This document shows, piece by piece, positions 50,300 to 53,971 of a DNA stretch of 59,081 bases (the first letter of the stretch is position 1; every line of letters begins with the position of its first letter). The translations under genes were made by a program, and so were the position numbers. The notes under the pieces are model-generated. The model saw only the letters and a list, made by a program, of their open reading frames with translations. It searched no databases and was not told the origin of the DNA. The stretch lies in sequence record DRR378314_895; one strand, given 5' to 3'.

Positions 50300-50452
50300 T
50301 GTTCTTTCATTGTTGCCAATGAAGCATAAGCTTGCACGTTTCGTGCATTTTTCATGCACACCCCCCTGTCAAGAGGCTTTGGGTGCCGTGTCGAAGGTTT
50401 CTTCTAGCACACTGGGGTAGAACGGTATTTCAGCATACCCCGTGGCTAGCGG

Positions 50453-52252
50453 TCATTTTTCTCCATGAGATTTCAGGAGTGCCACAACCGGTTCAATTTC
50501 AGTCCGAAGATAGACCGGTCCGACATCAAAGCCGTTCGGTCGGAACGGCTGGACCCCTTCGCTCTGGAGAATAGCCCGAATTGTGTTCCAATGCGCACCG
50601 GTTTCGGCCAACAGAATCGTTGGTGTCGTGTAGCTGGCTTCAAACGCAGCGATGTCGTCGCGGCTCATGCGCCATTCCCGACGCTTGGTCGTGGGATTCA
50701 AAACCAACATCGCAGGCGTGTAACCACCTTCGATCAGAGCCAGGAATTGACCTTTCCCCCGAATACCCGCCGACCGAGCGAAGGCCGCTGCTGTCATCTC
50801 CACTTGGTTGGTCGATGGCTTGCGCTTCGGCGCGACCTTCGCCTTGAACGCTGCAACTTCAATGATTTCCACCACAAGCCCGTGGTAGCCGAACACATCA
50901 GGACGCTGACCAAGGCGCAAAGCACCCGTCCGGATGGCCGCAATGATCTCTCCAACAGGAAGGTCCAGCCGCTTGTGAACGAGTTGGATCGTCTCCCACC
51001 CTGGCTCCTCTGCGGCAACCGGCTGCGCATAGGCCTCCAGCTCTTCAAGAAGAGCTTGGCCATCCGCAATCCGCCAAGGCGATTTGATTGTTGGGACGTT
51101 GGTCCTTGGGACGAGGACACCATCAGCCTTCAACCCGTTCAATTCGGCCAGCGTTGCGCCGATTGCACGTCGCAGCGCAATCGGACCGACCAATGTCGGG
51201 ATTTCATCAAGAATGTGCTGCCAGGTTTTCGCATCAAAGGTCTTTCGGGCATCGGCACGCGCGTCACTGGGCGCAAACGCGCCCGCTTCTGTCAAGAAAT
51301 CATCCAGAACAGCCGGGCCGATGCCTGTTTCCTTGGATGCTGTTGTAAGGGAGTGGAGACGCCGCTCTGTGACGGTATGTCCGAGAAGTTCATCACCTGG
51401 CGCTAATGGCCATATTTCCAGACAGTAGCCACGAAGGATTTCACGAAAGACCGCAAAGGCATCGTCATCAAGATAGCTGCCATTAAGGTGTCGGAGGAGC
51501 GGACCCAATTCGCCCTGATTCGCGATGTATCCACCGTCCTGTGATCGCATCAGGATGTCCAGAGCCGCGCGGATCCCATCAGGGCCTTGCGAGACAAAGG
51601 CCAAGCCTGTGGCCTTGGCGCGCCGATCGTCCGGGGCCTCACCCTGTTTGCGCAGCAAGGCTGCACCGATAAACTCACAGAGTGTGATCGTGGGAAACAC
51701 CGGCTGTGAGGCCAGCCATGTGTCGTCCGCAGCGATACCCTGCGAGAGACGCTTATCAAGCCAAAGGTCATAGTCTGTAGGATCAATGCGCCCGCAGTCG
51801 AATGATCCTGCTCCCAGGTTTGGCAGAATTTCCGCCAATCTCGCTCCAATGTCATCCCGCTCAATGGGGCGCGAACTAGACCACAAAGGAACCAGCGGAT
51901 GGTGGTGCCGGTGGCAAATATCAACACCTCTGCAGAGCCAGTCCCCCCGCAAGGCAATGTGCCGCAACGGATGCGGCTGATCAGCTGCATGCTCACGCAT
52001 GCAAAGTGGACAGCCCCGAATGATCGGGTTTCGTAGGGCCCGCGAGACAAAGACTTCCTTCCGAAATCGCATCCGGACGTCTCCGATGCGTTCACCTGTC
52101 CATGAGAGCATTTCGGCGAGCTGCGTGGCCGACAGCCCTGCGCGTTCTGCAAAAATCGCGACCGCCTCTTCGTCCTGCTCCAGGATACGCCGAAAGGTGG
52201 TACCGAGATCGAGGGCGAAGTTGGCAGCGTCGGTTCCATTCAGGATTGCCAT
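50453..52252 (-). CDS. tniQ: TniQ/TnsD-family target selector, long form, 5' end probably truncated
   Basis: GCPLC...W...ICHRH zinc motifs; the frame extends upstream as APDRETLPSLFSR (typical TniQ N-terminus, to about 52291) without a start codon. Confidence 0.85.
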   Translation of the reverse strand: MAILNGTDAANFALDLGTTFRRILEQDEEAVAIFAERAGLSATQLAEMLSWTGERIGDVRMRFRKEVFVSRALRNPIIRGCPLCMREHAADQPHPLRHIALRGDWLCRGVDICHRHHHPLVPLWSSSRPIERDDIGARLAEILPNLGAGSFDCGRIDPTDYDLWLDKRLSQGIAADDTWLASQPVFPTITLCEFIGAALLRKQGEAPDDRRAKATGLAFVSQGPDGIRAALDILMRSQDGGYIANQGELGPLLRHLNGSYLDDDAFAVFREILRGYCLEIWPLAPGDELLGHTVTERRLHSLTTASKETGIGPAVLDDFLTEAGAFAPSDARADARKTFDAKTWQHILDEIPTLVGPIALRRAIGATLAELNGLKADGVLVPRTNVPTIKSPWRIADGQALLEELEAYAQPVAAEEPGWETIQLVHKRLDLPVGEIIAAIRTGALRLGQRPDVFGYHGLVVEIIEVAAFKAKVAPKRKPSTNQVEMTAAAFARSAGIRGKGQFLALIEGGYTPAMLVLNPTTKRREWRMSRDDIAAFEASYTTPTILLAETGAHWNTIRAILQSEGVQPFRPNGFDVGPVYLRTEIEPVVALLKSHGEK

Positions 52253-52281
52253 GCGCGAAAACAGCGACGGGAGCGTCTCGC

Positions 52282-52845
52282 GGTCAGGGGCGCGAGCTCC
52301 TGCTCCGCGAGGTCGGTTCGCAAGGCTATGAGCTGGCGGACCCGATGGGCGGCCAGATGAGTATCCTTGGGTTTTCTTCCTTCGTCGAAATGATGAAATC
52401 CGGCGTCGCGACTTTCGCCCCTTCGCAGCTGTTGCCGGAGGGAAGTGCCAAGCTCAGGCTGGGCGGTCTGAGTGTCGCGGCCCAACTCTCCGACGAGCAA
52501 CAGACTTATGGCCGTTTCCACTACGCGGTATGCAGGGCGATCGACGAGCTCCATCGGCACCGGACCATTGTCGAGGGCAATGAGAACTTCCGGATTTCGA
52601 TCGGCGCCTTGAACGACCCCGCGAACAGGAAGTTCTTGCGCCCGCTCGTCCAGGCCTTTTTCGGCGAGCGTGTGCATTTGGGTGCAGCCACCTTGAAGGG
52701 CGGCCGGCAGAAGAGCTGGTTTCTCTACAAAGGGCGGACGCTGAAGAAATACTACGGGATCTATCAGGGTCTCCAGGACGGTGATGATGTCATCGCTGGG
52801 CTGGCAACACTTGACCACCTCAAAGGCAACGAGACACCGCGTCTG
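52282..52845 (+). pseudogene. N-terminal fragment of a TnsB/TniA-like transposase
   Basis: Open frame ending KGRTLKKYYGIY...AGLATLDHLKGNETPRL, resembling the TnsB HTH/linker; no DDE domain; joins tnsC out of frame. Confidence 0.55.
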
Positions 52846-53780
52846 CTCTGCAGCGTGGCCACTATACCTTCCCGCGCGCGGCAAAGCTTCGCGAAGCTTT
52901 CGAAAACTGCCTGCACGACTACTACGTCAAGGCCTCCGTCGGCGGGCATTTCGAAGCGCGCGGTCTGCTGGTGACCGGAGAATCCCGGGTCGGCAAGACC
53001 GCCGAGACCGTTCGGCTTGTGGAGGAATTCAACGCCAGCATGACCGCGATGCCCAATGGGAAGCCGGGTAAGTTCATCTACTGCAAGCTGGATGGGTCGA
53101 TCAGCTGGAAGGATCTGGGTCACAAGACGCTCGAAGCTCTCGGCTATCCCGCGAACCCCCGGCGCACCCAGGGTGAACTCTGGAACACGGTTCGCCACCA
53201 ATGCCGCGAACAGGGCGTCATCGGCCTCTACTATGACGAATGCCAACACGCCTTTACGTCGGGCGCAAAGTCCAACGAAAAGCTCTTGGATCGTTTCAAG
53301 GCGCTGATGAAGGAACCGGAATGGCCGTTGATGCTCATCCTGTCAGGCGTCCCGGTTCTGGCAAGCCACGTGAACTCTGAAGAGCAGATCGCCCATCTGC
53401 TCTCCCACATTCATTTCGATGAGATCCACCTGGGCAGGATCGCTGATCCGACAAGGGATCCGGACGTGATCGAACTGAACAAGCTCGTCTATACCTATGC
53501 CGAACGCGCCGATATCGATGTCGAAGACCTTAATGACGTTGATTTTCTGCAACGCCTCGATTTTGCCTGCGCCTCCAGGTGGGGCCTCGTCATCGAGCTG
53601 CTGATCCGCGCCTTCGGGCTGTGCAGGCTTCAGGGTCAGCAGACTGTCACGGTCAAAATGTTCTCCGAGGCCTATGCCCAGAACTCCCGCCTGCCTCAGG
53701 GCCTGTGCCCCTTCACCGCGCCCGACTACCACAACATGATCGACGGCGACAAACTCATGGAGATGGTGCTGGACGAATAG
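52845..53780 (+). pseudogene. tniB: TnsC/TniB AAA+ ATPase lacking its native start
   Basis: FEARGLLVTGESRVGKT (Walker A), LYYDECQH (Walker B), WPLMLILSG; the first available start (GTG 52971) falls at the Walker A. Confidence 0.8.
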
Positions 53781-53809
53781 CGGCTGGCCAATACCGGTAT
53801 GGACGTTTC

Positions 53810-53836
53810 AGGGCTCGCATGGCGGGCCCTTTTTTT
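53810..53836 (+). terminator. Rho-independent terminator after tnsC
   Basis: AGGGCTCGC-ATG-GCGGGCCCT followed by a T run. Confidence 0.75.
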
Positions 53837-53971
53837 GGCCGCAGCCGTGCATGCTTATGTGTCAACTGTGCATGCTTATGCTTTTAAGGAAAGAGAGGGC
53901 CGCAGCAAGTAACTGAAATATATGAGATATTTATGCACTGCACAGGCGCCGAATCATCTGGGTCTGCAAGC

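Follow-up and report, generated by a model that had tools for sequence, protein, structure and literature searches.

What kind of element lies at the 3′ side of the tRNA-Arg(TCT) gene in sequence record DRR378314_895, where a tniQ gene, a piece of tnsB and an ATPase gene are packed into fewer than 4 kb? We analyzed the whole 59,081-nt stretch, referred to here as the window, together with genomes of relatives (G numbers) and the loci taken from them (L numbers). The tRNA gene (50222–50299, plus strand; found by ARAGORN and matched to Rfam RF00005 with 58.5 bits) is the attachment target, and the element beside it spans 50314–53987, that is 3,674 bp with the tips TGCC...GGCA. We are highly confident that deletions have left this element a non-autonomous relic, and that it derives from a Tn7-like family which homes to a position just 3′ of tRNA-Arg genes in Rhodobacteraceae. 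The window copy has kept both ends and no transposase, and is unable to transpose on its own.

Three coding pieces survive between the ends. The first, on the minus strand, is a 5′-truncated tniQ (50453–52286), in which an open reading frame (ORF) of 599 aa (50453–52252) matches PF06527 with 48.1 bits (cut-off 27), in agreement with the TniQ of roughly 600 aa named in an earlier reading of this locus, hereafter the original prediction. The match starts only at profile position 20, the frame stays open upstream of its first ATG without a start codon, and homology to relatives continues through 52286 (blastn to L035 638–2702). The second piece (52278–52849, plus strand) is a 572-bp internal part of tnsB, comprising about 191 codons (approximately codons 23–213 of a 757-aa putative DDE transposase), and is 92–95% identical to the inside of tnsB in L036, L037 and L038; blastn and the ORF layout of relatives thus identify the TnsB-like piece noticed earlier between tniQ and the ATPase gene as a genuine tnsB fragment. 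The third is tniB, which encodes a TnsC-type AAA+ ATPase and is preserved from about codon 13 to its stop (52844–53780, plus strand), with 91% identity to the 324-aa tniB of relatives. Its ORF at 52971–53780 matches TniB with 33.4 bits (cut-off 22.4) as well as AAA_22, and carries the Walker A motif GESRVGKT, as expected for the plus-strand ATPase originally proposed; the only in-frame start before Walker A is a GTG at 52971.

Comparison with the full element of G001 (18,528 bp; L035 732–19259) revealed how these pieces became neighbors. By blastn, window 50221–52286 corresponds to L035 638–2702 (90% identity), 52278–52849 to 15805–16377 (93%) and 52844–53987 to 18115–19259 (90%), such that the three window segments are collinear with the 18.5-kb relative and share 3–6 nt at the junctions. 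Junction 1 (52278–52286), at which the blastn segments overlap by 9 nt with approximately 5–6 nt of microhomology, marks the loss of about 13.1 kb, which took away the cargo and tnsA, ~22 codons from the beginning of tnsB, and the beginning of tniQ including its start. Junction 2 (52844–52849), placed by blastn and the reading frames, marks the loss of about 1.74 kb from approximately codon 214 of tnsB through codon ~13 of tniB, and the resulting join is out of frame. The original prediction had instead taken the locus for an intact, autonomous and unusually compact Tn7-like element with a divergent tniQ and tnsBC. Both ends, open TniQ and TniB ORFs and the family's target site are present, as that proposal would have it; however, there is no tnsA, tnsB is an internal fragment, tniB is joined out of frame and lacks a start, and tniQ has lost its start codon and first codons. 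Collinearity with the 18.5-kb relative, interrupted by nothing other than two clean deletions, refutes an intact compact element, to which we give practically no probability: the adjacency of tniQ and tnsBC was created by the ~13.1-kb deletion, and relatives hold cargo and tnsA in between.

The surviving genes could also have been kept for the host, with tniQ, or tniQ together with tniB, serving for example to occupy the tRNA-Arg site against further insertions. Consistent with such a role, the 599-codon tniQ and 312-codon tniB frames are stop-free though the transposase is lost, and in two relatives (G004 and G005) tniQ and the left end likewise persist though no close tniB is present. On the other hand, tniQ has neither a start codon nor its upstream region, no sigma-70-like promoter was found in 50200–54300, tniB has no in-frame start ahead of Walker A other than the GTG, and a recent deletion explains the open frames equally well. 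We judge a host function to be very unlikely.

We next consider the boundaries of the deletion relic. The longest inverted repeat of the region pairs 50314–50336 with 53965–53987 (23 nt, 96% complementary). At the tniQ side, conservation among relatives runs to ...CATTGGCA and then ceases in 18 of the 18 loci where this end is visible; the left tip is therefore the TGCC at 50314, which opens a terminal inverted repeat with a terminal TnsB-type site (50314–50337, plus strand), and not the TGT at 50311. A TGT does stand at 50311–50313, as the original prediction observed, where it forms part of the duplicated target, and a spacer of 14 nt (50300–50313) separates the tRNA gene from the left tip. 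The right terminal repeat (53964–53987, minus strand), with the tip ...GGCA, was assigned from the longest inverted repeat, the motif count and the right ends of relatives. The original prediction had set this boundary about 100 bp short, at repeats (53847–53883) that are internal sites, whereas a third, terminal copy lies at 53965–53987, and it had assumed TGT/ACA termini in place of TGCC/GGCA. The two caveats attached to it, namely an AGA right tip and the lack of a duplication (TTCAT versus GAGGG), were artefacts, both arising because the right end had been placed too far in.

Unoccupied sites provided an independent view of the insertion, a comparison that the original prediction had suggested. 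The closest genome is G006, and we searched the 15 genomes of its genus with the two window flanks. Empty sites were found in six of them (G016, G017, G018, G024, G027 and G029), in which tRNA-Arg directly abuts the homolog of window 53988–54164 and the window flanks rejoin exactly across the element. These sites read CATTAT where the window shows CATTGT (50308–50313), the element and CATTTT (53988–53993), and an imperfect target duplication hence brackets the window element. The same comparison bears on the idea that the locus is a genomic island placed at the tRNA gene by a tyrosine recombinase, with TniQ and TniB as mere cargo. tRNA 3′ ends are classic integrase targets, three of the relatives' loci adjoin partial tRNA-Arg 3′ fragments of the kind that such islands leave, and a 64-aa ORF to the right of the element resembles a recombinase C-terminus by eye. 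Yet the boundaries are inverted repeats with arrays of 13-nt sites rather than direct repeats of the tRNA 3′ end, the empty sites show a 5–6-nt duplication 9–14 nt past the tRNA without any repeat derived from the tRNA, the element contains no integrase, and the region of the 64-aa ORF is present in the empty sites and thus predates the insertion. An integrase island is contradicted by the inverted-repeat boundaries and by the empty sites, and we find it scarcely credible.

The end sites are likewise those of a Tn7-like element. With at most one mismatch, the core CATAAGCWTGCA occurs four times in the 59-kb window, in every case at the element's ends (0.39 copies expected; none of 100 shuffles reached four). 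The copy AAGCATAAGCTTGCAC at 50322–50337 and the two inverted copies, 21 bp apart, at 53847–53862 and 53868–53883 are as originally described, and a fourth, overlooked then, is located at 53965–53976 within the terminal inverted repeat. A second, degenerate left-end site, TTTTCATGCAC (50346–50359, plus strand), shows nearly invariant columns across 19 aligned left ends. Counting the window, left ends carry a single strong site at position 12 (19/19) plus one conserved weak site, while right ends carry three sites at positions 12, 108/109 and 129/130 from the tip (13/13), the last two being the internal pair at 53847–53883 (minus strand). The ends are asymmetric, conserved across relatives and composed of arrays of one 13-nt site; their inverted repeats, multiple sites that differ between the two ends and 5′-TG...CA-3′ tips are characteristic of Tn7-like ends, though with TGCC/GGCA rather than TGT/ACA.

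Well-preserved ends are also what would be expected if the 3.7-kb copy were a working non-autonomous mini-transposon, mobilized in trans by an intact relative in the same cell. Both terminal repeats are intact, the three right-end sites and the left-end sites fit the family consensus, and the remaining coding pieces contain no internal stops. However, no helper copy is known, the window holds no further copies of the motif, no second 3.7-kb derivative was present among the loci examined, and target immunity, which is a property of Tn7, would disfavor reuse of an occupied site. We regard mobilization in trans as unlikely, albeit deserving some weight, and continue to favor a deletion relic.

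Intact members of the family document what this relic has lost. G001 has the same tRNA, left end and tniQ, with a 91%-identical tniB 16 kb away on the other strand. Both tips stand on a single contig in G001 and in G003, whose element measures 12,685 bp; the elements of G007 and G008 would reach about 23 kb and 26.5 kb, if both ends are on one contig as the coordinates suggest; cores are intact in L037 (G003) and L038 (G002). In window orientation, the intact layout comprises the left tip, tniQ (~620 aa, minus strand), cargo, a tnsA-like gene, tnsB and tniB (plus strand), three sites and the right tip. Accordingly, tniQ is transcribed outward to the tRNA-proximal tip and tnsA-tnsB-tniB outward to the right tip, with tnsA and a cargo ranging from several kb to over 10 kb lying between tniQ and tnsB. 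The original view that tniQ diverges from tnsBC and reads to the tRNA-proximal end thus holds for intact relatives, but not as the compact layout inferred for the window copy. When TnsA, TnsB and TniB were compared by tblastn with the surroundings of other tniQ genes in 17 short loci, of which 13 are distant, no match appeared within about 1.5 kb; we read this as pointing to a split layout that may be general in the clade, where divergence could hide weak matches.

Not all relatives are complete. In G001, tnsA and tnsB (L036 3961–4765 and 4723–7035) are each split over two frames and are single in L037 and L038, reflecting decay or an assembly error. G004 (L006) and G005 (L007) have tniQ, the left end and the tRNA and lack a close tniB (no match in G004; a best match of 29% identity in G005), and a 97%-identical TnsA homolog, P0125, is probably on the same contig as L007 (75,903 bp). 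Partial elements of the family seem to be common.

Directly before tnsB, intact relatives carry the TnsA-like gene, a genomic frame of 263 aa (database homologs, ~250 aa) without a Pfam match of its own. Its structural model (pLDDT 80.7) gave Tn7 TnsA as top matches (1t0f_B, E 2.1e-8; 1f1z, E 3.7e-7), along with chain 9bw1_M of the TnsABCD transpososome. PF08722 was detected at E ≤ 0.01 in 22 of the 28 sequences of alignment A1, which consists of the query and 27 chosen homologs, some of them picked for a precomputed PF08722 match; the query itself had no match. By the model and these PF08722 matches, intact relatives hence encode a TnsA-fold protein, the gene for which is deleted from the window copy. 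Within this protein (L037:8339–9127), E88, D126 and F140-V141-R142 are invariant in the 28 sequences. Judged by eye, F-V-R stands where an (E/Q)-x-K would be expected, and if R142 indeed occupies the nuclease lysine position of Tn7 TnsA, the endonuclease may be altered or inactive.

The very divergent transposase gene tnsB forms one 757-aa frame in both L037 and L038. Its product matches Mu-transpos_C at E 0.13, and PF00665 was present in 24 of 120 tnsB homologs among those listed, several of which are named DDE-type integrases; the candidate D, D and E residues were picked out by eye alone. The tniB product of L038 (324 aa) matches PF05621 with 43 bits (cut-off 22.4), and NCBIfam returned nothing above its cut-offs for TnsA, TnsB, TniB or TniQ. 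No tnsE was seen. The cargo is made up largely of defense genes, as seen beside tniQ in two loci: L002 (95–9473) contains a HATPase_c_3, Z1, DUF4420 and AIPR cluster with a Dcm (C-5) methylase and Vsr, and L006 (48–9729) encodes an MZB-domain protein, an SNF2-type helicase, an Eco57I-like methylase and an HNH protein. No cas family was found among the ORFs scanned in the window copy, L002, L006 and L036, where cas and CRISPR were not searched for systematically, and the window copy is too small to accommodate cas genes and an array; the original description of the element as CRISPR-free is borne out to the extent of these ORFs.

TniQ is the presumptive target selector. Its relatives occur in Rhodobacteraceae and are mostly about 610–650 aa long; 268 of 8,000 scored candidates reached E ≤ 0.001, the closest being 85–91% identical, and the TniQ of L002 matches PF06527 with 69.2 bits. 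We modeled a full-length TniQ of 622 aa from an alignment of 26 sequences and obtained a mean pLDDT of 87.4. Residues 3–318 of the model align with TniQ chains of type I-F3, V-K and I-B systems and with TnsD of the TnsD-TnsC-DNA complex 8v32 (Z 9.3–11.8), and residues ~376–622 gave serial winged-helix matches (Z 5.0–6.3), namely CbpM for residues 376–467 (Z 5.4), Xis for 440–498 (Z 5.0), BldC, MerR and the RdfS excisionase for 502–564 (Z 5.4–6.3), and RacA and MerR for 562–622 (Z 5.5–5.9). Pfam searches with the C-terminal 299 residues at E ≤ 10 returned a chance-level match only, and the atlas offered a weak HTH_17 lead for TniQ, carried by 20% of one cluster. As modeled, the C-terminal half folds as tandem winged helices of the MerR/excisionase type. 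As to the original prediction that target recognition resides in the C-terminal extension, the modeled fold makes it plausible, while DNA binding itself would follow by inference only.

To characterize target choice, we scanned one genome per species, which returned 24 loci of relatives. In 13 of them, ARAGORN identified a complete tRNA-Arg gene (12 TCT, 1 CCT) just past tniQ. Seventeen loci were assessable, showing the tip together with 30 nt or more of flank; 12 adjoin a full tRNA-Arg gene at 10–19 nt, and three (L017, L018 and L020, the last with a fragment of 17 nt) adjoin a partial 3′ fragment of such a gene. Taken together, 15 of the 17 loci have the tniQ-end tip 10–19 nt away (mode 14) from a tRNA-Arg gene, full or partial, always with the tniQ end proximal. 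With the window and the partial-fragment locus L017 included, six cases share an offset of 14 nt. The fixed-site homing to tRNA-Arg, mostly TCT, that was originally proposed is thus upheld in homologs. Among 151 sampled genomes of Rhodobacteraceae, 14 had a TniQ match at E ≤ 1e-30, and we take the lineage to be widespread among marine members of this family. Thirteen more distant loci (TniQ 32–50% identical) included three with a full tRNA-Arg gene nearby (L080, L082 and L088) and one with a partial gene (L090), the TniQs of these four loci being 33–45% identical. Both tips were available in 11 genomes, and clean 5-bp duplications were seen in G003 and G013. The left tip of G009 (L010) contains a 6-nt duplication (TGCCAA twice); when that is taken into account, a clean 5-bp target duplication (ATTAT) can be read.

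Further observations concern the occupation of these sites. In G007, the genome of L004, a right tip is followed 6 bp on by another left tip (L039 ~1765–1815), that is, by two tandem elements. The flank of L009 shares a 29-nt string with DNA approximately 190–220 nt beyond a 34%-identical tniQ in L089, which suggests stacking beside another Tn7-like element and not the use of a new target. In G025 (L057) and G026 (L062), both from the genus of G006, the same tRNA-Arg(TCT) site holds a related but distinct element, which lies 11–13 nt from the tRNA and has an end beginning TGCCAATCGGGCATAAG; no tnsA, tnsB or tniB homolog was found within the short loci L057 and L062.

Several results weigh against a deletion relic of a tRNA-Arg-homing Tn7-like family. 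The window's own duplication is imperfect, with CATTGT and CATTTT for an empty CATTAT, and has a register of 6 nt instead of 5 nt. Across the 11 genomes, duplications are irregular: the 5-bp duplication anticipated in the original prediction is found in three (G003, G013 and, as adjusted, G009), G001 has 6 bp and G002 has 8 bp, and none is readable in G006, G007, G008, G011, G012 and G015. For these 11 genomes it should be considered that several end pairs are split between contigs of draft assemblies, so that the two ends may stem from different copies. Two of the 17 assessable loci (L004 and L009) are not beside a tRNA, and a spacing of 10–19 nt is looser than in published TnsD systems. For tnsB, the rve match of 20.8 bits is below the cut-off of 32.6, and solved TnsB chains were reached only at E 0.016–0.037. 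The sequence profiles of the TnsA-like (A1) and TniQ (A2) families reached no relevant solved structure, and as a consequence both proteins are linked to solved relatives by fold comparison only; moreover, winged-helix Z scores of 5–6.3 are in a range that can reflect common small folds. Finally, all three surviving coding pieces lack internal stops, and it follows that the deletions are recent or that some function persists.

We then compared the family with known systems. Like Tn7, which uses TnsABC with TnsD for insertion at attTn7 downstream of glmS, it combines a separate TnsA-fold protein with a putative DDE TnsB, an AAA+ regulator and a TniQ-family selector. The two also share asymmetric ends in which one site recurs several times, in some copies clean 5-bp duplications, and oriented insertion just outside a conserved gene that is left intact. 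The genes tnsABCDE of Tn7 run inward from its right end, which is the end facing glmS. The present family differs in targeting tRNA-Arg instead of glmS, in having the tips TGCC...GGCA instead of TGT...ACA, in its short 324-aa ATPase of the TniB type, in the absence of a visible tnsE, in a tnsB below the Pfam rve cut-off, and in its arrangement, with a lone tniQ at the target-proximal end reading outward and tnsA-tnsB-tniB reading outward at the other end. Tn5053/Tn402 elements carry tniA-tniB-tniQ with the resolvase gene tniR and no TnsA, and target res sites. In common with them, our ATPase matches Pfam TniB and is of TniB size, and the selector matches Pfam TniQ; unlike them, the family has a TnsA-fold protein, no resolvase among the scanned ORFs, and a tRNA gene rather than res sites as its target. 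An assignment to the Tn5053 type was rejected given the TnsA-fold gene directly before tnsB and the lack of any resolvase family among the ORFs scanned in L002, L006 and L036.

Further parallels are offered by cyanobacterial tRNA-targeting Tn7-like elements and the CRISPR-associated transposons (CASTs) of types I-B2 and I-D (PmcCAST, McCAST and CyCAST), in which a large TnsD-like protein, made up of a TniQ domain plus a DNA-binding domain at its C-terminus, guides integration downstream of a tRNA gene (PMC9881144, PMC10293859). TnsD of McCAST is described as placing insertions 29 ± 1 bp past tRNA-Leu and with the left end nearer the tRNA (PMC9881144), the end that also stands beside the target here, and CyCAST as inserting 30–33 nt after tRNA-Leu (PMC10293859). 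In the cyanobacterial systems TnsA and TnsB are fused, a second small TniQ is usual and Cascade frequent, and the targets are tRNA-Leu or tRNA-Val at 29 ± 1 or 30–33 nt, whereas the elements studied here have a separate TnsA, one tniQ and no cas among the scanned ORFs, tRNA-Arg at 10–19 nt (mode 14), and hosts in the Rhodobacteraceae. Tn6022/AbaR-type elements, which target comM with TniQ and TnsF, resemble ours in a Tn7-like core and a chromosomal attachment site, and in Tn6022 the targeting gene is reported on the opposite strand (PMC10293859). There, however, TniQ is presented as a hub for TnsF, a separate selector resembling tyrosine recombinases (PMC10293859), in contrast to the winged-helix array predicted at the C-terminus of TniQ itself and the tRNA target of the present family. 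Defense cargo is given as typical of Tn7-like elements (PMC8649781), and a preprint describes tRNA targeting as a feature that recurs (bioRxiv 10.1101/2025.07.27.667033). It is thus established that Tn7-like elements can home to tRNA genes under the guidance of a protein. We found no description of a tRNA-Arg-homing family in the literature searched, where the supplementary catalogues of PMC8649781 and PMC10293859 may already list such elements, and a tRNA-Arg-homing Tn7-like lineage of marine Rhodobacteraceae is apparently undescribed.

By analogy with Tn7 TnsABC and TnsD, the winged-helix array at the C-terminus of TniQ would bind the 3′ part of the tRNA-Arg gene, and the TniQ domain would recruit the ATPase of the TniB/TnsC type. 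The ATPase would in turn activate TnsA and TnsB for insertion about 14 bp downstream of tRNA-Arg, in one orientation with the tniQ end proximal, making a short (usually 5-bp) duplication and leaving the tRNA intact. The DNA binding, the recruitment of TniB and the order of events are inferred only from this analogy. The window copy would have been inserted in this manner and would later have lost about 13.1 kb and about 1.7 kb in two deletions by illegitimate recombination. A more far-reaching interpretation is that the family represents a deep, unclassified branch of Tn7, defined by an attachment-proximal lone TniQ with four tandem winged helices, outward tnsA-tnsB-tniB, replacement of the TnsA lysine by arginine, and replicative movement. 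We consider this combination distinctly improbable; if true, replicative movement would account for the tandem copies, for duplications that are irregular (5–8 bp) or cannot be read, and for the frequency of partial relics at tRNA-Arg sites.

The surroundings of the window copy are those of an ordinary chromosome. A terminator-like hairpin with a T-run (9 pairs, 7 of them G-C) follows tniB at 53810–53830 on the plus strand. The 64-aa ORF at 53972–54166 (minus strand) shows 74–78% DNA conservation over 53988–54164 beside tRNA-Arg in the six empty-site genomes and has no Pfam match at E ≤ 0.1. To its right, within 54239–56098 (minus strand), lies a gene for a methyl-accepting chemotaxis protein, and to the left of the tRNA, within 46115–49892 (plus strand), are genes recognized by eye as encoding the permease and ATPase of an oligopeptide/dipeptide ABC transporter. 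The element's neighbors are ordinary chromosomal genes.

These findings have consequences for annotation and for the family at large. Labeling the window copy as an active transposon would be wrong, and surveys based on profiles could miss the family, as its transposase falls below the Pfam cut-off. The features of value are the compact 324-aa ATPase, the short insertion offset, the selector with its predicted tandem winged helices and the defense-island cargo, and an intact member might be turned into a tool for site-specific integration in roseobacters and in hosts of the Rhodobacter type. If its selector folds as modeled, the family would add an example of TniQ proteins acquiring new DNA-binding modules.

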